Part shown: positions 23,303 to 52,199 of the stretch, one piece after another
Layout of the letters: the number at the start of each line of letters is the position of its first letter
Numbering within the stretch: position 1 is the stretch's first letter
Assembly: GCA_003136395.1 (NCBI GenBank)
Contig: PLEH01000283.1
Location: 5,208 to 69,207, forward strand
Direction: 5' to 3'
DNA from: Phenylobacterium sp.
Lineage (GTDB): Bacteria; Pseudomonadota; Alphaproteobacteria; Caulobacterales; Caulobacteraceae
DNA length: 64,000 nt
The notes under the pieces: model-generated
Seen by the model: only the letters and a program-made list of their open reading frames with translations
What the model was told of the DNA's origin: nothing
The model's database searches: none
Program-made: the position numbers and the translations under genes

Positions 23303-23321
23303 TGCTTCCCATGTGCTTCCT
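23303..23321 (+). repeat. Tandem TGCTTCCCA-type repeats (11-bp period), right of att
   Basis: tgcttccca-tg-tgcttcct. Confidence 0.6.
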
Positions 23322-23372
23322 AACCTCGGTGAAATGCAGAGCAAGAAAACGCGGCCCACAGGATATTCGGCC

Positions 23373-24869
23373 ATGCTGGAGAAACGCGCGAAGTTGACCC
23401 GCAGGATCGTGGAGGGCGCCGAGCTGGGCGCCGGCGAACGGTTCATCTGGGACAGCGAGGTTTCGGGATTTGGGGTACGAATCCGCCCCAGCGGCCGCCG
23501 CGGCTATGTCTTGCAGTACCGCTTCGCCGGCCGGACACGTCGCTTTCAGATTGGAACCCACGGGTCCCCCTGGACGGTGGAGACCGCGCGAGACCGCGCC
23601 CGCATTCTGATGGGTCAGATCGCCGGCGGCGAGGACCCGCAAGATGCTAAGAATGGCTCCCGCAAGGAGCTCAATGTCGCTCAACTCTGCGACCTCTATC
23701 TGGCCGAAGGCCTGGCTACCTGCAAAGAGACCTCCGTGGCCTCGGCCCGGTCCGATATCGAAAACCACATCAAGCCCTTCCTCGGGACCAAGCGCGCCAG
23801 CCTGGTCAATCGCCAGGACGTGGACCAGCTCCTGGCCGCCGTCGCGGCCGGCAAGACCCGGCGCACAGTGAAGACCGGCAAGAAGCGCGGGCTCTCACGG
23901 GTGAAGGGCGGCAAGGGCGCCGCCAACTCCGCGGTGGTGACGCTGTCGGCGGCCATGGGCTTCGCGGTGGCCCGCGGCATCCGCCATGACAACCCGGCCT
24001 TCCGGGTGCGGCGGTTCCCGGAGAAGAAGCTCGAGCGCTTCCTGTCGCCCGCCGAGATCGCGCGATTGGGCGAGGCTCTCGCGGCGGCCGAGGCGATCGG
24101 GGTCGAGCTGCCGGCCGCCATCGCGGCCATCCGGCTCCTGATCCTCACCGGCTGCCGCAAGAACGAAATCCTCACTCTGCAGCGGGCGCACGTCGATGCG
24201 CACCACCGCTGCCTGCGGTTGCCCGACAGCAAGACCGGGGCGAAGATCGTCCATATCGGCCTACCGGCGCTCAAGGTGATCGAGGCCATCCCGGAGGTTC
24301 CTGGCAACCCCTACCTCCTGGTGGGCGCCTGGGACGTCGGCCACTTCGTGAACCTGCAGCGGCCGTGGGAGCGGATCCGCGCGGCGGCGGGCCTGGGGGA
24401 CGTGCGGCTGCACGATCTGCGCCACGCGTTTGCGAGCCTCGGCGCCGCGACCGGCGACAGCCTGCTGGTGATTGGGGCGCTGCTCGGCCACCGGAGCGCC
24501 AAGACCACCCACCGTTACGCGCACCTGGCCGAGCACCCGGTCAAGGATGCCGCTGACCGCATTTCAGCCGAGATGTCCCGGCTCCTGGGCGAAAAGGGGG
24601 AGGGCGAGGAGGTCGTGCACGACCCGTTTACGGCGACATCAACGCCAATCGACGATCCGCAAATGCAATCTCTGCTCGGAAGGGTGAGCCACACCCGGTG
24701 GCTCGATACCCAGGCCGCGGCGAACTACGTCGGGCTGTCGATCCCGACGCTTCACACGTACCGGTGGGCGGGCACGGGTCCGCCGAGCCGGAAGATCGGG
24801 CGCCGGATCGTCTATGCGCAGCCGGATTTGGACTCGTGGGTGGCTGGACGAGCTGAGGCCTCCACCTAG
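23373..24869 (+). CDS. int: Tyrosine integrase with N-terminal arm-binding domain and C-terminal excisionase-like HTH
   Basis: IWDSEVSGFGVRI arm domain; catalytic TGCRKNE, DSKTG, LHDLRH, LLGH, RYAH; tail WLDTQAAANYVGLSIPTLHTYRWAGTGPPSRKIGRRIVY. Confidence 0.92.
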   Translation: MLEKRAKLTRRIVEGAELGAGERFIWDSEVSGFGVRIRPSGRRGYVLQYRFAGRTRRFQIGTHGSPWTVETARDRARILMGQIAGGEDPQDAKNGSRKELNVAQLCDLYLAEGLATCKETSVASARSDIENHIKPFLGTKRASLVNRQDVDQLLAAVAAGKTRRTVKTGKKRGLSRVKGGKGAANSAVVTLSAAMGFAVARGIRHDNPAFRVRRFPEKKLERFLSPAEIARLGEALAAAEAIGVELPAAIAAIRLLILTGCRKNEILTLQRAHVDAHHRCLRLPDSKTGAKIVHIGLPALKVIEAIPEVPGNPYLLVGAWDVGHFVNLQRPWERIRAAAGLGDVRLHDLRHAFASLGAATGDSLLVIGALLGHRSAKTTHRYAHLAEHPVKDAADRISAEMSRLLGEKGEGEEVVHDPFTATSTPIDDPQMQSLLGRVSHTRWLDTQAAANYVGLSIPTLHTYRWAGTGPPSRKIGRRIVYAQPDLDSWVAGRAEAST

Positions 24870-26422: not shown

Positions 26423-27286
26423 TCAGGCCGCTCGGTCGAAGGGATAGCCCTCCTCGATCGGCAACAGAGGATCGCGCGACCACTCGTTCCAGGAACCGAA
26501 GTAGATTCGGACATCGGTCAGGCCCGCCTCTTCCAGGGCCACGAACGTGTTCGAGGCCCTCGCGCCCTTGAAACAATAGATGACGACCGGCGTGTCGCCG
26601 GTGAGGCCAACGGTGGCGCACTCGGCGAGGATCTCCTCGCGGGACTTGAACATCTGCCCCTGCGCAGTCGGCTTCATCATTCGATACCATTCAAGCCACA
26701 CGGCGCCAGGAATACGGCCTTTGCGGGGGCAGTAGTCCTTCCCATAGGGCGAGGAGCTTTCGCCGATCCATTCGTCCACGTCGCGGACGTCGAGCTTGAC
26801 GACCTTGGGGTCGGCGACGGCGGCCTTCATGCCGCTTAGGTCAACGATGATATGCCCGGTATCCTCACGGACTGGGAACGTTCTGGGTTGAGGTTGTGCC
26901 GGTTCCGTGGCGATCGGCAGGCCAGCCGCGCGCCAAGCCGCGAATCCGCCGTGGAGGACCTTGATCTTCGGATAGCCGAGGTGGCGGAGCAGCACATAGC
27001 CGCGACAGGACTGGCCGAAGCCGGTGGTCATGGACTGCTCATAGACCACTGCGGTCTCGGCGCCGCTCAAGCCGGCGTTTCCGAACGCCGTGGCGAAGGT
27101 GTCCCGGAGCGCCGACAGCCCCTCGGGCGTTGAAGTCGCCAGGTAGGTGAAAACCTCGTGCAGGTTCACGGCGCCCGAGATGTGGGCTTCGGCATGGGCG
27201 GAGGCGTCGCGCGTATCAATAATCACGACCGGTTCGCGGCCCATCATCTGAAAGAGCTCCTGGGGTGACACGAGAACCTGACCCAC
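26423..27286 (-). CDS. Two-domain sulfurtransferase (rhodanese)
   Basis: IDTR..HISGAV, LHGGFAAW, DVR..GRIPGAV, active loop YCFKGAR, GSWNEWS; GTG after GAGGAGG. Confidence 0.9.
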   Translation of the reverse strand: MGQVLVSPQELFQMMGREPVVIIDTRDASAHAEAHISGAVNLHEVFTYLATSTPEGLSALRDTFATAFGNAGLSGAETAVVYEQSMTTGFGQSCRGYVLLRHLGYPKIKVLHGGFAAWRAAGLPIATEPAQPQPRTFPVREDTGHIIVDLSGMKAAVADPKVVKLDVRDVDEWIGESSSPYGKDYCPRKGRIPGAVWLEWYRMMKPTAQGQMFKSREEILAECATVGLTGDTPVVIYCFKGARASNTFVALEEAGLTDVRIYFGSWNEWSRDPLLPIEEGYPFDRAA

Positions 27287-27691
27287 GGGCTTCCTCCTCG
27301 GCAATTGACGCGACAGGATGCGGCGGCGGTCGGTGCGCGCTTTGATCGGCGTCAAAATGCGCATGACAACTCACTGCCCGAGCCACATGGGTCTGCCAGC
27401 GCTCCCTATTGAACGGCTGCGGAGTGTCCCCGATCAGCCGCTGCGCCTCTTCGCGGGTCGTCGTGGTGCGAAGGCAGATGGGCGAGCTATTGCCGCGGTT
27501 GAACGGTACGAGCAGCCCATCCTGCTTGATCCCGAGCCGCGCGGCGGTCCCCCGCCGATCTTGAGCGCACGCGGCTTTGCTTTCGCCTCCGACATCTGTG
27601 GCCAGGAACCCCCGCCAACGCGGCACGTTAATGGAAATTGGGTGAGGCGAGATTTCGGCGAGTGGCCGGCCTTTATTCGAAAGTACAAATC

Positions 27692-28966
27692 ATGACCGCT
27701 TCAAAGCCCAACGTGCTCATCTTGGGTGGAAACTTCGCTGGGCTCGGCGCCGCGCAAAAGATTCGGCAATACGCAAAGGACAAGGTCGACATCACGCTCG
27801 TCGACCAGAAAGCCTATCTCGACTACATCCCCAACATCCCCCTGGAAATATTCGAAGGGCGCGATCCGGCGGTCACCATGCACATGGATCTGGTGGACGC
27901 GCTGGCGCGCGACGACATCACCTTCCGGCAGGCCGAAGTCGAAGCCATCGACGTGAAGGCCCAGAAGGTGACCGTGCGCCCGAGCGAACGGCCCGGCGCG
28001 CCAAGCTATGTGATGACCTACGATTATCTGGTGATCGCGCTGGGCGCGCGGCTGGCCTACGACGAGATCGAAGGGTTCGCGGAATACGGCCATACGGTCT
28101 CCGACGCCTTCCACGCCAATCGGTTGATCGAATTTCTCGAGAATGACTACAAGGGCGGGCCCATTGCGGTGGGCTCAGCGCGGTTCAAGCAGGGCTTAAA
28201 GGGAAAGCCCGACTGGCTGCCGATCGCACTGGCCGCCTGCGAGGGGCCGCCTGTGGAGGTGTCCCTCGCCCTGGCGCACTGGTTGCAAGAACATGACAAG
28301 GGCGGCCCCAAGAACATCACCCTCTTCACGCCCGGTGCGTTGATCGCAGAGGACGCCGGCGAAAAAGTCGTCAAACAGCTGCTCGACGCCGCCTCGTCCA
28401 TGGGCTTCAGCTATATCAACAACACCGAAGACATCACCCGGCTGACCGCGGAGGGGATCGAGTTCGCGAACGGTCAGAAGATCAAGTCCGAGCTCAAAAT
28501 CATCCTCCCGAACTGGGCGCCGCATGCGTTCCTGAAGGGCCTGCCGGTCAGCGACGAGGTTGGCTTCATCATTACCGACATGAAGATGCGTAACCCAGAC
28601 TATCCCAATGTCTTCGCCTGCGGCGACGCCGCGGCCATCACCGTACCGAAACTGGGCGCCATCGGTCACCAGGAGGCCGAAGTCGTCGGCCGTCAGATCG
28701 CCAAGGAGGTGGGCATGATGGAAGCCGAAAAGGCTGACGCGCCCTGGATGCCAGAGGTCATCTGCATCGGCGACATGGGCGGCGGCAAGGCCTTCTACAT
28801 CCACTCAAATTCTTGGTTTGGCGGGGATATCCAGGATCTGGAAATGGGCCGGCTGCCCTATGCTCAGAAGATGATCTACAAGGAGATGTTCTTCCGCAGT
28901 CACGGCAAGATCCCGAACTGGGGCCTGCCTCTGGCGAAGTGGTCCGCCGAAACGCTCAAGGCTTAG
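27692..28966 (+). CDS. Sulfide:quinone oxidoreductase-like flavoprotein resembling type V (Acidianus-like)
   Basis: ILGGNFAG, YDYLVIALGA, GSARFKQG, ACEGPPVE, VFACGD, TVPKLG, PEVICIGD. Confidence 0.75.
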   Translation: MTASKPNVLILGGNFAGLGAAQKIRQYAKDKVDITLVDQKAYLDYIPNIPLEIFEGRDPAVTMHMDLVDALARDDITFRQAEVEAIDVKAQKVTVRPSERPGAPSYVMTYDYLVIALGARLAYDEIEGFAEYGHTVSDAFHANRLIEFLENDYKGGPIAVGSARFKQGLKGKPDWLPIALAACEGPPVEVSLALAHWLQEHDKGGPKNITLFTPGALIAEDAGEKVVKQLLDAASSMGFSYINNTEDITRLTAEGIEFANGQKIKSELKIILPNWAPHAFLKGLPVSDEVGFIITDMKMRNPDYPNVFACGDAAAITVPKLGAIGHQEAEVVGRQIAKEVGMMEAEKADAPWMPEVICIGDMGGGKAFYIHSNSWFGGDIQDLEMGRLPYAQKMIYKEMFFRSHGKIPNWGLPLAKWSAETLKA

Positions 28967-29167
28967 CCTGCAGGCGTGGTGGCTCGCTGAAGGACGTCCG
29001 GCTGATCGAGGCCGAAGCTGGCGGCTGGACCAGATGGGTCCGCCTGGCCGACGGAGCCGCGACAGGCCACATTATAGAGTCGTCGCATATCCGGTCTGGA
29101 GCATTTTGCTGACTGCGTGGGGTAACGCTACCTAGTCTCGACTTTGGGCCTAGTGGCCGGCGCGGCC

Positions 29168-29320
29168 CGGATCAAGCGGGCCTACTCGACCACGCCGCCA
29201 AGTCGGTCGCCTGGTATCGCAAGGCCGCCCTGCAGCTTCTGGGACGGAGGCCATCTTTCGTCTTCCTGCTCCACGCGACGCGGGTGAATGCGGACAGCAT
29301 CGACCAACTGACCGACATTC
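29168..29320 (+). pseudogene. C-terminal fragment of polysaccharide deacetylase
   Basis: Own translation LDHAAKSVAWYRKAALQLLGRRPSFVFLLHATRVNADSIDQL; LLH motif. Confidence 0.55.
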
Positions 29321-29339
29321 CTCATGACCCACGCCTTGT

Positions 29340-29490
29340 CGCCTTCCAGCTTCTCCCCGATGACGAAACCCGTGGCCGGCAGATGGTGGCGTCGCAGTCC
29401 GGCCAACAGCTCTCTGGTGGTGACAGCCGCGAAGGGGGCCGCGTCACTTAGCAACATCGTCGGGATGTCGTCGAACGTGAGCGCGACGCC
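29340..29490 (-). pseudogene. N-terminal fragment of polysaccharide deacetylase
   Basis: VALTFDDIP..ELLAGLRRHHLPATGFVIGEKLEGD (TFDD motif). Confidence 0.65.
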
Positions 29491-29687
29491 TTCCCTCCCG
29501 GCTGTGCGCGCCGAGCATAGCGCAGCCGGTTGGCTGCAGAACGACCTCGAGATGACATAAAAGCCTAAGGAAGCGTACGATGCCGAGGTCTCGGAAGGCT
29601 GGTCGGGCGCGCGGCCCGCCCGAATGCCCCCGCCCTTAACCAGCAGCCGGTTTTGGCCTAGCCTTCCGACAATCTTTGGGGAGCGCC

Positions 29688-30572
29688 ATGGCGGACTGGG
29701 ACGGACGGGGCCTCGTAACGACGGCCTGGTTGGAGGAGAACCTCGCCGACCCCGACTTGCGGGTGTTCGACACGACGGTGCACCTGCGCCCAGCAACGCC
29801 GGGCCCGTACAGAATCGAAAGCGGCCGCGCCGACTACGAAGCCTCCCACGTGCGAGGCGCAGCCTTCCTGGACCTGGCCGTCGACCTGTCGAATCCCGAG
29901 GCTGCCCTGCCGTTCACCAGGCCGTCGCTGGACCGGCTCGCTCACGCGCTCGGCGATGCAGGCGTCAAACGTGGCTCGCGAGTTGTGGTCTACAGCACGA
30001 CGACGCCTATGTGGGCGACCCGGGTGTGGTGGATGCTGCGAGCCTCGGGCTTCGACGATGTCGCGGTGCTTGATGGCGGCTTTCCCAAGTGGATAGCCGA
30101 AGGGCGTCCCGTTGAAGCCGGCGCGCTGCGCTATGCGGCCGCCGATCTGTCGCTGGTCGCCCAGCCGGGCGCCTGGGCCGACAAGCACGCAGTTCTGGCG
30201 GCCATCGACGATGGCGCGGTGTGTACGATCAACGCCCTTTCGCCGAGCGTACACAGCGGCGAGTCGCCGACGAACTACGGCCGCAAGGGCCACATCAAGG
30301 GCAGCCGCAACGTGCCCTACGCCGCCCTGCTGAAGGCCGACGGCACGTACCAAGACGACGCGGAACTGCGCGCGCTTTTCGCGGGCGTCGGAGCGCTCGA
30401 GCGGCCGCGGGTCATCTGTTACTGCGGCGGCGGAATCTCCGCGACCATGGATGCGCTCGCACTGACACGGCTCGGCCACCCGTCCGTGGCAGTCTACGAT
30501 GGCTCGATGTCGGAATGGAGCCGTGACCCCGACCTCCCAATGGAAACCGGTTCCCAGACTTCTGCAGCCTGA
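29688..30572 (+). CDS. Two-domain sulfurtransferase (SseA/MST-like)
   Basis: LVTTAWL, HVRGAAFLD, LDGGFPKW, GHIKGS, active loop YCGGGISA, YDGSMSEWS. Confidence 0.9.
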   Translation: MADWDGRGLVTTAWLEENLADPDLRVFDTTVHLRPATPGPYRIESGRADYEASHVRGAAFLDLAVDLSNPEAALPFTRPSLDRLAHALGDAGVKRGSRVVVYSTTTPMWATRVWWMLRASGFDDVAVLDGGFPKWIAEGRPVEAGALRYAAADLSLVAQPGAWADKHAVLAAIDDGAVCTINALSPSVHSGESPTNYGRKGHIKGSRNVPYAALLKADGTYQDDAELRALFAGVGALERPRVICYCGGGISATMDALALTRLGHPSVAVYDGSMSEWSRDPDLPMETGSQTSAA

Positions 30573-30932: not shown

Positions 30933-31682
30933 TCAGCGGGCCCGAGGAATCCGAACGTCCTGTTCCACCATGCCGGCATTGGGTGTCTTGGCATCGGTGG
31001 CCACGATCCGCAGCTTGTAGCGGCCGGGCGCGGTCGCGGGCAGCGCGGCCTCGTACTCGCTGGTCCGACCGGTGAACCGCATGGGCGCGTGGGCCAGGAT
31101 CCGGGGTCCTTTCATGAGCGTCGCCTCGATACGGTAGTTCGCAGCGTCCCAAAGGCCGCCGGCCTCGATCGGACAACCGCACATCGGGGTGACCTTCGCC
31201 GTGACCTGCAAGGTCCCGTCGGCGGCTGGCGCGGCGGCCGGTTCGATCACTAGACCCGGAAAGCTCAGCACCAGGCCGTCGCCGGTGACGTCGCGGCCCG
31301 GGATGACCCACAGGGTGGACGAGACGTGGATCGCGGCTCCCGGCTTGCCCATGGGTCCTACGCCGTCGGCGCGGACCAAGGTCGGCTGCCGAAGATCGAG
31401 GACCGCGTCGAAGCCGGCGGCGTCCTTGTCAGACAGCGCCTCGCCGCGCTGCCGCGGGGCGCGCATGATCCGCGGCGTATCGCCGGCGCCGCCCCGCGTA
31501 AGGCCCTTCGCGAGCAGGGCTCCGGTTCGCGCATCGGTCAGCGTGATCTCGACCCCGCCCATGTGATCTCCGATGAACTTGGCGTCCAACGCTTGGGCGC
31601 GGACCATCACGTGGGTCGGCTCCGCGAGGGCGGCGGGCGCCAGCAGGGCGAGGGCCGCAGCGAAGGTGAGAGACTTGATCAT
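30933..31682 (-). CDS. Secreted conserved hypothetical protein with MCGCP motif
   Basis: Signal peptide MIKSLTFAAALALLAPAALA; VRAQALDAKFIG; 8 nt downstream of pdo. Confidence 0.75.
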   Translation of the reverse strand: MIKSLTFAAALALLAPAALAEPTHVMVRAQALDAKFIGDHMGGVEITLTDARTGALLAKGLTRGGAGDTPRIMRAPRQRGEALSDKDAAGFDAVLDLRQPTLVRADGVGPMGKPGAAIHVSSTLWVIPGRDVTGDGLVLSFPGLVIEPAAAPAADGTLQVTAKVTPMCGCPIEAGGLWDAANYRIEATLMKGPRILAHAPMRFTGRTSEYEAALPATAPGRYKLRIVATDAKTPNAGMVEQDVRIPRAR

Positions 31683-31690
31683 GACGCTTA

Positions 31691-32656
31691 TCAGACGGTG
31701 TTGAGGGGAATCTTCAGGTAGCGGACGCCGTTGTCTTCCGGCTCGGGAAGATGGCCGCCGCGCATGTTCACCTGCACAGAGGGCAGGATCAGCCTTGGCA
31801 TGTCCAGGGTCCGGTCGCGCGCCTGGCGCAGGGCGACAAAGTCGGCCTCGCTGACGCCCTCATGCACATGAAGGTTTTCGCGCCGCTCGGCGCCAATGGT
31901 GGTCTCCCAGGCATAGGTGTCGCGGCCGGGCGCCTTGTAGTCGTGGCAGAGGAAAACGCGGGTCTTGTCGGGGAGCGCCAGCAGTCGCTGGATCGAGGTG
32001 TAGAGTGTCGCGGCGTCGCCGCCGGGGAAGTCGCAGCGGGCCGTGCCGTAGTCCGGCATGAACAGGGTGTCGCCGACGAACGCCGCGTCGCCGATGACAT
32101 AGGCCAGACAGGCCGGCGTGTGGCCCGGGACATGAAGGGCTATCGCCTGCAGGCCACCGATCGCGAAGCGCTCGCCGTCCTGGAAGAGGTGGTCGAACTG
32201 GCGCCCGTCACGGGCGAAGTCCGGGCCGGCGTTGAACAGCTTTCCGAAGGTGTCCTGCACCCGCACGATCTTCTCGCCGATCGCCAGGCGACCGCCCAGA
32301 GTAGCCTGAAGATAGGGCGCGGCCGACAGGTGGTCGGCGTGGGCGTGGGTCTCCAGCTGCCAGACCACGTCCAGCCCCTCGGCCTGGACATAGGCGAGGA
32401 CCGCGTCGGCCGACCCGTGCGCCGTGCGGCCCGAGGCCGGATCATAGTCGAGCACGCTGTCGATGATGGCGCAGGCCTTCGACGCCGGGTCGCGCACCAC
32501 ATAGGTTACGGTGAAGGTCGCCTCGTCGAAGAAGGCCTTGACCTGCGGGCGTTGGGCCGGGGCGGCGACTCCGGCGTCAACGATCGCCACGGCGCTTGCC
32601 ACGGCCGCATCGGATAGGGAGGTCGGATCGCACATCGGAGAACTCGCAGGTTGCAT
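31691..32656 (-). CDS. Persulfide dioxygenase (ETHE1/Blh-like metallo-beta-lactamase fold)
   Basis: LETHAHADHLSA, PGHTPAC, GDTLFMPDYGTARCDFPGG, LCHDY, PSVQVNMRGG. Confidence 0.9.
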   Translation of the reverse strand: MQPASSPMCDPTSLSDAAVASAVAIVDAGVAAPAQRPQVKAFFDEATFTVTYVVRDPASKACAIIDSVLDYDPASGRTAHGSADAVLAYVQAEGLDVVWQLETHAHADHLSAAPYLQATLGGRLAIGEKIVRVQDTFGKLFNAGPDFARDGRQFDHLFQDGERFAIGGLQAIALHVPGHTPACLAYVIGDAAFVGDTLFMPDYGTARCDFPGGDAATLYTSIQRLLALPDKTRVFLCHDYKAPGRDTYAWETTIGAERRENLHVHEGVSEADFVALRQARDRTLDMPRLILPSVQVNMRGGHLPEPEDNGVRYLKIPLNTV

Positions 32657-32671
32657 CGGCGATAAATAACT

Positions 32672-32693
32672 TATATGCGAATATACGCAGATA
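32672..32693. promoter_or_regulatory. Palindromic operator copy 1 (pdo / tauE)
   Basis: TATATGC-gaatatac-GCAGATA. Confidence 0.7.
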
Positions 32694-32717
32694 CAAGTCG
32701 GATTGACGTTCGCCCTC

Positions 32718-33491
32718 ATGTCCACGTTCACGATCGTCTCAGCCCTGATGAGCGGCGCCCTCGTCGGCGCGCTGCTCGGCCTGTTCGGCGGCGGCGGCTC
32801 TGTGCTGGCGACGCCGCTGCTGCTGTATGTCGTGGGCATTCGCGACCCTCACGTGGCGATCGGCACCTCCGCCGCCGCCGTGGCCGTGAACGCCGCGATG
32901 AATCTGGTCGGTCACGGCCGGGGCGGACGGGTGAAGTGGCCGTGCGCGACAGTGTTTGCGGGCGCGGGCCTACTCGGGTCCTTCCTGGGTTCAAGCCTCG
33001 CCAAGGCCGTCGACGGCCAGAGGCTGCTGCTGTTCTTCGCCTTCGCCATGGCGGCTATCGCGGTCTCCATGCTTCGCCGGCCCAAGTCGGAAGGCGATCC
33101 CGAAGTCCGCATCACCTGGCCCCTGATCCTGAAGCTGGCGCCGGTCGGCGTGCTCACGGGCCTCGCCGCCGGCTTCTTCGGCATCGGCGGCGGGTTCCTG
33201 ATCGTTCCCGGGCTGATGGCGGCCACGGGCATGACGCTGGCCAATGCCGCCGCCTCGTCGCTGCTCTCGGTGGCGTTGTTCGGCGCGGCGACCTCGCTGA
33301 ACTACGCGATCTCGGGTCTCGTCGATTGGCCGATCGCCGGGCTGTTCATTCTCGGAGGTCTTGCCGGCGGCGCCTTAGGTGTACGCGGCGCCGGCGCGCT
33401 CGCCGCCCGCGCGCTCCTGGCGCGGCGGCTCTTCGCGTCGCTGGTCCTCGCCGTGGCCGTCTATGTGGCGTGGAGGGCGACCCACGGATGA
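32718..33491 (+). CDS. TauE/SafE sulfite exporter family
   Basis: GLFGGGGSVLATP, AIGTS, GFFGIGGGFLIVP. Confidence 0.9.
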   Translation: MSTFTIVSALMSGALVGALLGLFGGGGSVLATPLLLYVVGIRDPHVAIGTSAAAVAVNAAMNLVGHGRGGRVKWPCATVFAGAGLLGSFLGSSLAKAVDGQRLLLFFAFAMAAIAVSMLRRPKSEGDPEVRITWPLILKLAPVGVLTGLAAGFFGIGGGFLIVPGLMAATGMTLANAAASSLLSVALFGAATSLNYAISGLVDWPIAGLFILGGLAGGALGVRGAGALAARALLARRLFASLVLAVAVYVAWRATHG

Positions 33492-38033: not shown

Positions 38034-38055
38034 TATTTGCGTATCTTAGCATATA
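38034..38055. promoter_or_regulatory. Palindromic operator copy 2 (cydDC / cydABX)
   Basis: TATTTGC-gtatctta-GCATATA. Confidence 0.7.
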
Positions 38056-50453: not shown

Positions 50454-50759
50454 TCAGGGGACCGCGCAGAACAGGCGGGACAGGGTCTCGACAACGGCGC
50501 GAGCCTGGCCGCCTTGCAGGCCGTAGTAGATGGTTTGGCCGTCGCGGCGGGCGGCGACCACGCCGTCCCGGCGCAGCAGACCCAGGTGCTGGGACGCCAG
50601 GCTTTCGCGCACGCCCAGCATCTCGGCGAGCGCGCCCACCGACTGCTCGCCGTCGAGCAGCGCGCAGACGATCATCAGCCGATGCGGGTTCGCCAGCGAC
50701 TTCAGCAAAGCGCAGGCGTCGTCGGCCGAGGCCTTCAGGGCGTGGGCTTGTAAATTCAT
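50454..50759 (-). CDS. BigR/SqrR-type persulfide-sensing ArsR repressor
   Basis: KSLANPHRLMIVCAL and C-terminal LFC (two-Cys signature); SQHL, RRDGQTIYY. Confidence 0.85.
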   Translation of the reverse strand: MNLQAHALKASADDACALLKSLANPHRLMIVCALLDGEQSVGALAEMLGVRESLASQHLGLLRRDGVVAARRDGQTIYYGLQGGQARAVVETLSRLFCAVP

Positions 50760-50766
50760 AGTTGCG

Positions 50767-50788
50767 TATATGCAGCTATTCACATATA
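50767..50788. promoter_or_regulatory. Palindromic operator copy 3 (repressor-rhodanese-RND / sqr operon)
   Basis: TATATGC-agctattc-ACATATA, 8 nt upstream of the repressor ATG. Confidence 0.7.
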
Positions 50789-50837
50789 TAGTCAAGCGAT
50801 CGAGACGATCACCCTAGGGACCAGGTCGGGACCCGCC

Positions 50838-50851: not shown

Positions 50852-50918
50852 AGTCAGCCTGTTGGAATTGGCGGAACGTCCCGTCGCAAACCGCAGGTGT
50901 CCGGAGGAGACAAACCAC

Positions 50919-52199
50919 ATGGCCAAGCCGCGCATAGTCATCCTGGGCGCCGGACTGGGCGGCGCGATCGCCGCCTTCGAGGTCAAGGACGCCGTCGGCG
51001 ACAAGGCCGAGGTCAGCGTCGTCTCCCAGGGCGACACCTTCCACTTCGTCCCGTCCAACCCGTGGGTCGCCGTCCATTGGCGCAAGCGCGAGGCCATCGA
51101 GGTCAAGCTGCCGCCGGTCTTCAAGAAGCGCGGCGTCGGCTTCTCGCCTGCCGGCGCCAAGCGGGTGCTTCCGGGCGAAAATCGCCTCGAACTCAATGAC
51201 GGGACGACGCTCGACTACGACTATCTGGTCATCGCCACCGGTCCGGACCTGGCCTTCGACGAGGTCCCCGGGCTTGGACCGCACGGCGGCTTCACCCAGT
51301 CGGTCTGCCATGTCGATCACGCCGAGATGGCCGCCGCAGCCTTCGACCGCTTTGTCGAAAACCCCGGCCCGATCGTGGTCGGGGCCGTGCAAGGCGCCTC
51401 CTGCTTCGGCCCGGCCTACGAATTCGCCATGCTGCTGGATACCGAGCTGAAGCGCCGCAAAATCCGCGACAAGGTGCCGATGACCTTCGTCACCTCCGAA
51501 CCCTACATCGGCCACCTGGGCCTGGACGGGGTCGGCGACACCAAGGGGCTGCTCGAGAGCGAGATGCGCGAGCGGCACATCAAGTGGGTCACCAACGCCA
51601 AGGTCGCCTCGGTCGAGGCCGGCATGATGCATGTCGAGGAAATCGCCGACGACGGTTCGGTGAAGGCCACCCATGACCTGCCGTTCGCCTTTTCGATGAT
51701 GCTGCCGGCCTTCCGGGGCGTCGCCGCCATGCGCGGGATCGAAGGCCTGACCAATCCGCGCGGCTTCATCGTCGTCGACAAGCACCAGCGCAATCCGACC
51801 TTTCCGAACGTCTTCGCACTTGGCGTCTGCGTGGCCATCGCGCCGACCGGCAAGACCCCGGTGCCCGTCGGCGTGCCCAAGACCGGCTTCATGATCGAGA
51901 GCATGGTCACCGCCATCGCCAAGAACCTGGGCCAGATCATCGGGGGTCAGCCGACCACCAACGAGGCGACCTGGAACGCCTTCTGCCTGGCGGACTTCGG
52001 GGACGGCGGCGTGGCCTTTGTCGCCCAGCCGCAGATCCCGCCGCGCAACGTCAACTGGTCGGCCGAGGGCAAGTGGGTCCATCTCGCCAAGGTCGCCTTC
52101 GAGAAATACTTCCTCGGCAAGATCAAGCGCGGCGAGAGCGAGCCCTTCTACGAAAAGCTGGTCCTGGACGTCATGGGCCTGCGCAAGATCAAGGGCTGA
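50919..52199 (+). CDS. sqr: Sulfide:quinone oxidoreductase, type I
   Basis: FVPSNPWVAV, QSVCH, GASCFGPAYEF, GVPKTGFMIE, CLADFGD, PQIPPRN; GGAGG RBS. Confidence 0.93.
   Translation: MAKPRIVILGAGLGGAIAAFEVKDAVGDKAEVSVVSQGDTFHFVPSNPWVAVHWRKREAIEVKLPPVFKKRGVGFSPAGAKRVLPGENRLELNDGTTLDYDYLVIATGPDLAFDEVPGLGPHGGFTQSVCHVDHAEMAAAAFDRFVENPGPIVVGAVQGASCFGPAYEFAMLLDTELKRRKIRDKVPMTFVTSEPYIGHLGLDGVGDTKGLLESEMRERHIKWVTNAKVASVEAGMMHVEEIADDGSVKATHDLPFAFSMMLPAFRGVAAMRGIEGLTNPRGFIVVDKHQRNPTFPNVFALGVCVAIAPTGKTPVPVGVPKTGFMIESMVTAIAKNLGQIIGGQPTTNEATWNAFCLADFGDGGVAFVAQPQIPPRNVNWSAEGKWVHLAKVAFEKYFLGKIKRGESEPFYEKLVLDVMGLRKIKG

Follow-up and report, generated by a model that had tools for sequence, protein, structure and literature searches.

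A horizontally acquired, type V-like sulfide:quinone oxidoreductase of Phenylobacterium sp. with a serine at the site of the FAD-linking cysteine

Analysis of a 64,000 bp stretch of Phenylobacterium sp. contig PLEH01000283.1 (hereafter the window) revealed a real and intact gene, the product of which we have designated P0001, for a horizontally acquired sulfide:quinone oxidoreductase (SQR) of an already known, type V-like kind. P0001 is the third SQR of this genome, beside two type I copies, and belongs to a large, mostly neutrophilic bacterial branch that neighbours the type V enzymes of archaea. At the site where the Acidianus ambivalens SQR carries the cysteine that links the FAD, P0001 has a serine, and the lack of the cysteine is shared across its lineage, a bacterial SQR branch that is widespread and poorly annotated. 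Taken as a whole, the explanation that we regard as very probable is that P0001 is a functional monotopic SQR with non-covalently bound FAD, from a bacterial sister lineage of type V, which reached a sulfide-detoxification island by horizontal gene transfer.

The gene and its product

The open reading frame gave a stop-free translation (Table 1), in which all of the motifs given for it in the preliminary description (GSARFKQG, ACEGPPVE, TVPKLG, PEVICIGD and TVSDAF) were found. The corresponding motifs of the A. ambivalens enzyme that were given there (GSGPFYQG, SACEGPVFE, TVPKLG, PTIVCVAD and SVCEPE) proved correct in the sequences of 3H8I and 3H8L. A domain search matched P0001 to Pyr_redox_2 (E 1e-17), and both the Rossmann architecture of two dinucleotide-binding domains and the two redox-active cysteines of the superfamily were present. 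Residues G12, N14, F15, A16 and G17 were invariant among 69 relatives, and F400 was near-invariant in the same set. Residues 155-162, read directly from the sequence, are GGPIAVGS, which is not the GxGxxG motif of NAD(P)H binding. The two predicted C-terminal helices (residues 390-402 and 411-421) are likely, by analogy, to form the membrane and quinone-site region.

Comparison with six orthologues gave dN/dS values of 0.07-0.17, so the gene is maintained under purifying selection; these values and the intact conserved residues ruled out a pseudogene or a decaying gene. The relatives of P0001 are labelled only as 'FAD-dependent oxidoreductase' by NCBI, and members of its clade are labelled as sulfide:quinone oxidoreductase by IMG.

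Table 1. Features of the type V-like SQR gene and of the surrounding island (positions are those of the window).
Feature	Position	Strand	Basis or remark
Tyrosine integrase, C-terminal HTH_17 domain	23313..24869	+	Left edge of island; 2.8 kb upstream of SQR gene
Two-domain rhodanese (thiosulfate sulfurtransferase family), active-site loop CFKGARA	26423..27364	-	Domain/family match
Divergent intergenic region, rhodanese/SQR	27365..27691	.	327 bp
Type V-like sulfide:quinone oxidoreductase gene	27692..28966	+	424 aa, P0001; Pyr_redox_2; best PDB match A. ambivalens SQR; AlphaFold2 model
FAD-binding Rossmann motif, N-terminal (G12-G-N-F-A-G17)	27725..27742	+	Inside Pyr_redox_2 match
Ser137 codon (TCC), position of FAD-linking Cys129 of A. 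ambivalens SQR	28100..28102	+	Alignment
Extended loop, residues 162-182, preceding first catalytic Cys; type V capping loop	28175..28237	+	
Cys183 codon (ACEGPP), catalytic Cys178 of A. ambivalens SQR	28238..28240	+	Conserved in 116/116
Cys358 codon (EVICIGD), catalytic Cys350 of A. ambivalens SQR	28763..28765	+	Conserved in 115/116
Two predicted C-terminal helices, 390-402 and 411-421	28859..28954	+	DSSP on AlphaFold2 model
Second two-domain rhodanese, 3-mercaptopyruvate sulfurtransferase-like	29676..30572	+	NF008557, 155 bits, below cutoff
Hypothetical protein, downstream of persulfide dioxygenase gene	30933..31682	-	No family hit
Persulfide dioxygenase (MBL fold, Blh-type dioxygenase domain)	31691..32839	-	NF040641, 408 bits, profile positions 138-422
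TauE/SafE sulfite exporter	32703..33491	+	157 bits
Type I SQR	50916..52199	+	492 bits to A. ferrooxidans SQR 3SZ0

Assignment to the type V group

The A. ambivalens SQR (3H8I and 3H8L) matched P0001 over its full length (query residues 7-405, chain residues 3-398) with 31-35% identity, an E value of 6e-50 and 174 bits, and the match is therefore far beyond chance. The structures of type I SQR, human type II SQOR, NDH-2 and FCSD all scored 47 bits or less against P0001, with 44-47 bits for type I SQR, 28-39 bits for NDH-2 and persulfide reductases and 27 bits for FCSD. An AlphaFold2 model of P0001, which was built from 69 relatives, had a mean pLDDT of 91.8. A Foldseek search with this model ranked 3H8I first (E 1e-30, rmsd 2.5 Å), with type I SQRs, NDH-2 and human SQOR below it; the SQR structures matched the model at E values of about 1e-28 to 1e-30. 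Full-length neighbours of P0001 were few among the 1.84 billion cluster representatives searched, and the nearest named ones were from Thermoplasma and Sulfobacillus. The enzymes of Thermoplasma acidophilum and T. volcanium are type V references (bioRxiv 10.1101/2022.12.07.519552), and Sulfobacillus acidophilus belongs to the type V lineage (PMC4584964).

The placement of P0001 was followed in two trees, both of which leave out the named type II, IV and VI references. In the quick tree of 75 rows, the clade of P0001 had a support of 100 and fell within a 26-row group (SH-aLRT 94) with the Acidianus/Thermoplasma and Sulfobacillus group. The careful tree of 48 rows placed the bacterial clade (100/100) as sister to canonical type V (94/83), and the node uniting the two was weak (UFBoot 82, SH-aLRT 37). 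Type I and type III were well apart from the P0001 clade in both trees, with type III forming a clade of its own at 100% support. Support for the type V link that is independent of the trees came from the loop before the first catalytic cysteine, which is 21 residues long in P0001 and 18-27 residues across its clade. Of ten canonical type V rows, eight have 18-26 residues in this loop and the other two have 6 and 11; types I and III and the majority of the other groups have 6-7.

The sole SQR-specific NCBIfam hit of P0001 was the type III model SQR_III_seleno (NF049943), the cutoff of which is 525 bits. P0001 scored 81 bits with this model, as against 79-92 bits for the type I paralogues of the same genome and 198-304 bits for genuine type III proteins. 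It lacks the P[YF]KCP active-site motif and type III forms a separate clade, and this assignment was rejected. Type I was rejected on the structure scores given above, on an identity of about 24% to the type I copy of the window and on its separate clade. NDH-2 and FCSD were rejected as well, as their structures reached 27-39 bits compared with 174 for the A. ambivalens SQR and the Foldseek order agreed. A clustering with type III SQR or with NDH-2/FCSD, which the preliminary description had named as counting against its reading, was not seen in the NF049943 scores, the PDB scores or the trees.

We conclude that P0001 is type V-like and represents a distinct sister lineage of canonical type V, with a weak node joining the two. 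The earlier label of an archaeal-like type V enzyme agrees with the sequence, predicted fold and tree, in all of which type V came closest, but has to be narrowed to this sister lineage. The protein has the extended capping loop of type V and lacks the cysteine for FAD linkage. The term type V-like, rather than canonical type V, is used because Ser137 stands at the Cys129 site and 91% of the crown clade has Ser or Thr there.

The site of the FAD-linking cysteine

In the alignment, Cys129 of the A. ambivalens SQR (SVCEPE) corresponded to Ser137 of P0001 (TVSDAF). The column was occupied by Ser in 82, Thr in 24, Cys in nine and Ala in one of 116 full-length relatives (60-98% identity). With canonical type V as the root of the tree, just four changes between Cys and non-Cys sufficed at this site: a single loss basal to the crown clade of 117 rows, a regain in a small subclade to which a Roseovarius protein belongs, one more regain and one reversal. 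Cys129 was kept in all canonical type V rows and in the intermediate P0122 (45% identical). The clade with the ancestral loss takes in Rhodobacteraceae, Sphingobium, Paracoccus, Thioclava, Sulfuricaulis and Acidithiobacillus. As Ser or Thr prevails in the clade and the loss maps to its base, the substitution is an old trait of the lineage and not a peculiarity of P0001. The absence of the FAD-anchoring cysteine had been correctly noticed beforehand; what does not hold is that it sets this protein apart, as it is the ancestral state in a clade that numbers over 100 sequences from bacteria.

Human type II SQOR works without a bond between cysteine and flavin, and Cys128 of the A. ferrooxidans type I SQR is not linked to the flavin. 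According to the PDB titles, the A. ferrooxidans enzyme has been crystallised in Cys128Ala and Cys128Ser forms, and together these points suggest that the third cysteine is dispensable in other SQR types. The covalent bond between Cys129 and FAD in the A. ambivalens enzyme is described in PMC8551704, which quotes Sousa 2018. As serine replaces this flavin-linking cysteine in P0001, the most economical reading of the sequence is that its FAD would be held non-covalently. Somewhat short of an even chance, in our estimate, is the broader proposal that the whole clade is an unrecognised subtype of type V with non-covalent FAD, in which the Roseovarius-like subclade regained the cysteine. Ancestral loss of the cysteine followed by regain in a subclade would offer a ready comparison for the role of covalent FAD in SQR stability and redox tuning.

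Origin of the gene

No homologue of P0001 at an E value of 1e-20 or better was found in 60 relatives, 36 of which were of the same genus. The GC content of the gene was 60.7% compared with 68.2% for the genome, which placed it at about the first percentile of long open reading frames, and its GC3 of 0.82 was only mildly low. The absence from the 60 relatives, the adjacent integrase and the difference in GC content show that the gene is foreign, and its horizontal acquisition is well supported.

The closest orthologue, in a Rhizomicrobium metagenome-assembled genome (MAG), was 93% identical to P0001, and nucleotide homology between the two loci ended 42 bp past the stop codon. With 71-93% identity, this protein and those of Rhodobacteraceae, Thioclava and Mesobacterium were the nearest relatives, and further close relatives came from Paracoccus, Gemmobacter, Sphingobium and Thermomonas. 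The Acidithiobacillus members of the clade formed a separate subclade with about 61% identity to P0001. An origin in an acidophile-type gene pool had been suggested; the gene is indeed foreign by GC content, absence from relatives and proximity to the integrase, but its nearest relatives are neutrophilic Alphaproteobacteria, and a source among acidophiles is not supported.

The neighbouring rhodanese and the island

The rhodanese gene upstream of the SQR gene is oriented divergently to it, as had been described. Its product showed two Rhodanese stretches (E 4e-33), with tandem domains and the catalytic cysteine in a six-residue loop of the C-terminal one, and was closest to RhdA of A. vinelandii (1E0C) and a Thermus rhodanese. 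The CFKGAR loop aligned with CQTHHR of RhdA and CRIAER of the Thermus protein and has the usual C-X4-R spacing. With this spacing, and with CFKGARA invariant in 119 of 120 rhodanese homologues, the loop is not the unusual feature it had been taken for. Homologues with 72-85% identity were found in Cupriavidus, Pandoraea, Ralstonia, Microvirga and Hyphomonadaceae, and the protein is a member of a very common family. A CFKGAR rhodanese was found in none of the 60 relative genomes.

Ten close SQR loci from the genome collection were analysed, and synteny was sampled more widely homologue by homologue. At the ten close orthologue loci, homologues of either rhodanese, the persulfide dioxygenase or TauE were absent from flanks of up to 8 kb. 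The SQR orthologue of Thioclava stands alone, that of Stakelama is beside a DUF302 gene and an MBL-fold gene, that of Sulfuricaulis is beside a P-type ATPase gene, and one SQR homologue directly follows a sulfur oxygenase reductase gene; homologues of the rhodanese, persulfide dioxygenase and TauE were likewise absent from these four loci. In total, pairing of SQR and rhodanese was seen at none of 12 distinct SQR-homologue sites and at none of five rhodanese-homologue loci. Persulfide dioxygenase and TauE genes were present at two of these five loci, one of which also had an ArsR regulator, and a type V SQR gene at none. As the pairing is not conserved, the rhodanese belongs to a common persulfide dioxygenase/TauE detoxification set to which the type V-like sqr was an extra arrival. 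The idea of a dedicated SQR-sulfurtransferase pair, put forward in the preliminary description, found no partner gene at either group of loci.

The gene set of the island corresponds to the SQR/persulfide dioxygenase pathway of heterotrophic bacteria (Xia et al. 2017, PMC5702731). Close orthologues elsewhere lie in unrelated contexts, so the neighbourhood backs an SQR function in this genome only. For the persulfide dioxygenase gene, the ATG at 32656 is the probable true start. Operator sites of the ArsR/SqrR type were found at 32674 (before pdo/tauE) and 38038, with a related site near 50765; a pattern search detected none in the 327-bp region between the rhodanese and SQR genes. Regulation of sqr may therefore differ from that of the rest of the island. 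Generic palindrome, promoter and terminator scans of the same intergenic region gave nothing usable. The type I SQR that had been reported alongside was confirmed in the window (Table 1), and the second type I copy of the genome is on another contig (C230). Type I SQR was found in 18 of the 61 genomes searched, this genome included.

Proposed function and alternatives

The most likely role of P0001 is that of a working SQR with non-covalent FAD, which would feed the rhodanese, persulfide dioxygenase and TauE genes of the island. Sulfide would attack the (poly)sulfide bridge between Cys183 and Cys358 and be oxidised there as a chain of sulfane sulfur grows. Two electrons would pass from sulfide to FAD and on to the membrane quinone, presumably ubiquinone, at a site predicted near Ile359, Phe400 and the C-terminal helices; the role of this site is assigned by analogy with work on type I SQR quoted in PMC9666304. 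The two rhodaneses could then hand the sulfane sulfur to a thiol carrier, and the persulfide dioxygenase would convert it to sulfite for export by TauE. The gene itself was acquired horizontally and entered a mosaic sulfide-detoxification island that is bounded by an integrase.

An unlikely alternative is that P0001 does not oxidise sulfide, either because it is another flavoprotein with two dinucleotide-binding domains (NDH-2-like, or a persulfide/polysulfide reductase) or because the loss of the third cysteine has crippled it. The generic NCBI label of its relatives would be compatible with this, no assayed member of the clade was found in the literature, and the type III homologue CT1025 of C. 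tepidum had no detectable activity (PMC4584964), from which it follows that homology to SQR is in itself no guarantee of activity. Against this stand an essentially invariant catalytic cysteine pair (Table 1), the wide gap between the scores of NDH-2 or persulfide-reductase structures and that of the SQR structure, the low dN/dS, the GGPIAVGS sequence in place of GxGxxG, the likely dispensability of the third cysteine in other SQR types and an island context of sulfide oxidation. Only slightly less improbable is a dedicated, co-inherited pair of SQR and sulfurtransferase from an acidophile pool with a rhodanese loop specialised for the SQR, a proposal that is already largely refuted. The two genes are divergent neighbours 327 bp apart, both are absent from all 60 relatives, Acidithiobacillus is found in one subclade of the SQR clade and a sulfur oxygenase reductase gene precedes the SQR gene of one member, all of which would fit such a pair. 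However, the partner was missing at every SQR- and rhodanese-homologue locus examined, the CFKGARA loop is near-universal in its family, the nearest SQR relatives are neutrophilic Alphaproteobacteria, and homology to the 93%-identical orthologue stops just past the stop codon.

It is most improbable, and more so than either of these, that the flavin of P0001 is still bound covalently through another residue or chemistry, that is, by an O-link to Ser/Thr137 or through Cys310 (FACGD). Position 137 is a small nucleophile or near-nucleophile (S, T or C) in 115 of the 116 relatives, and Cys310 is present in 83 of them. However, S, T and C replace one another at position 137 between close relatives, and Ala stands there in one protein. 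In place of Cys310, 33 relatives have Ala, Val or Thr, and the Acidianus enzyme has Val. The specific form of this idea, in which Ser or Thr at the former Cys129 site tethers the flavin by an undescribed 8-alpha-O-seryl/threonyl-FAD bond, is given equally little weight; we know of no 8-alpha-O-seryl flavin. Were it true, the clade would show a novel type of covalent flavinylation instead of a simple loss. Non-covalent binding of FAD by a functional SQR is the reading that we retain for P0001. With two type I enzymes and one type V-like enzyme within or beside a mobile island, this genome offers a reasonable setting in which a possible division of labour between SQR types by sulfide concentration could be explored.

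Comparison with known systems

The island resembles the SQR-persulfide dioxygenase-rhodanese pathway (PMC5702731) in having an SQR, a persulfide dioxygenase, rhodaneses and TauE; the usual SQR of that pathway is of type II (or type I), whereas that of the island is type V-like. A type V-like SQR in a cluster of this composition was found in no other genome examined.

Among bacterial enzymes, the SqrE of Acidithiobacillus is counted as type V/SqrE (PMC5148195), Thiomonas intermedia is a type V reference (bioRxiv 10.1101/2022.12.07.519552), and type V SQR was reported from 8 of 2504 proteobacterial genomes (PMC5702731). The Acidithiobacillus homologue P0120 (61% identity) is within the 100%-supported clade of P0001, but P0001 itself is in the alphaproteobacterial/Rhodobacteraceae subclade, outside that of Acidithiobacillus. 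The published proteobacterial SqrE entries may correspond to proteins of this clade.

Type I SQR (A. ferrooxidans 3T31/3SZ0, A. aeolicus 3HYV) and P0001 share the superfamily, the fold (TM about 0.77), the two catalytic cysteines and the C-terminal helices. Their identity is about 20-24%, the loop before the first catalytic cysteine has 6 residues in type I and 21 in P0001, and type I SQR has the GASCFGPAYE active-site motif and keeps a cysteine at the 129-equivalent position (SVCHVDH), where P0001 has Ser137. Type III SQR of the Caldivirga maquilingensis type is alike in superfamily and similar in length; its P[YF]KCP motif and its loop of 7 residues do not occur in P0001.

The A. ambivalens SQR (type V/SqrE; 3H8I, 3H8L) has the FAD-linking Cys129 where P0001 has Ser137, and its capping loop is 25 residues long as compared with 21. 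It comes from a thermoacidophilic archaeon and P0001 from a mesophilic alphaproteobacterium, and the two proteins are in separate, well-supported clades, the union of which is weakly supported. What P0001 has in common with it is the predicted fold, the catalytic cysteine pair, the long capping loop, the TVPKLG motif and the lack of a signal peptide.

Gene organisation around the two sqr genes, and putative operators

The AT-rich operator-like site next to the type I sqr was related to sites at 32,673–32,692 and 38,035–38,054 of the window (Table). A pattern search of the 327 bp intergenic region upstream of the type V-like sqr found no ArsR/SqrR-type operator-like site. The longest ORF of pdo, the persulfide dioxygenase gene, would overlap tauE, which encodes a TauE/SafE sulfite exporter, and showed dioxygenase homology only from residue 94 onwards. 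An alternative start codon, the ATG at 32,656 (MQPASSPMCDP...), gave a protein of normal length and would leave the operator between pdo and tauE. The minus-strand frame in the gap downstream of the type V-like sqr ran over the start of the second rhodanese gene and is probably a gene remnant. The HTH_17 domain of the integrase was excisionase-like and lay in a single frame with the other two domains.

Table. Features in the window and on other contigs
Feature	Position	Strand	Description
Integrase ORF	23313-24869	plus	Arm-DNA-bind_3, Phage_integrase, C-terminal HTH_17
Gap, type V-like sqr to second rhodanese	28967-29675		710 bp
Open frame	29182-29796	minus	Polysaccharide-deacetylase-like motif VALTFDDIP; within/over the gap
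Longest pdo ORF	31691-32839	minus	Start at 32839
ArsR/SqrR-like regulator gene	50495-50759	minus	Small; divergent from type I sqr
Operator-like site TTGCGTATATGCAGCTATTCACATATAT	50760-50800		AT-rich; between regulator gene and type I sqr
Chimeric open frame	C301:12086-12319		77 codons; same genome, outside the window
Sulfur oxygenase reductase and P0095 SQR genes	L022/L023, 5026-7290		

Relatives of the type V-like SQR

The first ~33 residues of the chimeric frame on contig C301 stemmed from a ferritin-like protein with homology to the ferritin gene located after the SQR in the Rhizomicrobium MAG. Fused to these in frame were the last 43 residues of a type V-like SQR, with 94% nucleotide identity to 28,848 bp–28,966 bp of the window. 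This frame is either the relic of a second, decayed SQR copy or an assembly chimera.

In other genomes, the gene for P0095, a clade member with 64% identity, followed a sulfur oxygenase reductase (SOR) gene (PF07682) at a distance of 25 bp on a gammaproteobacterial contig. This arrangement looks like a possible SOR-SQR operon in which the SQR would re-oxidise SOR-produced sulfide. The clusters of another homologue, P0022, contained proteins of at least 90% identity from the alphaproteobacterial genera Paracoccus, Gemmobacter and Tabrizicola as well as from the gammaproteobacterium Thermomonas hydrothermalis. Such identity across the two classes indicates a recent inter-class transfer of this SQR.
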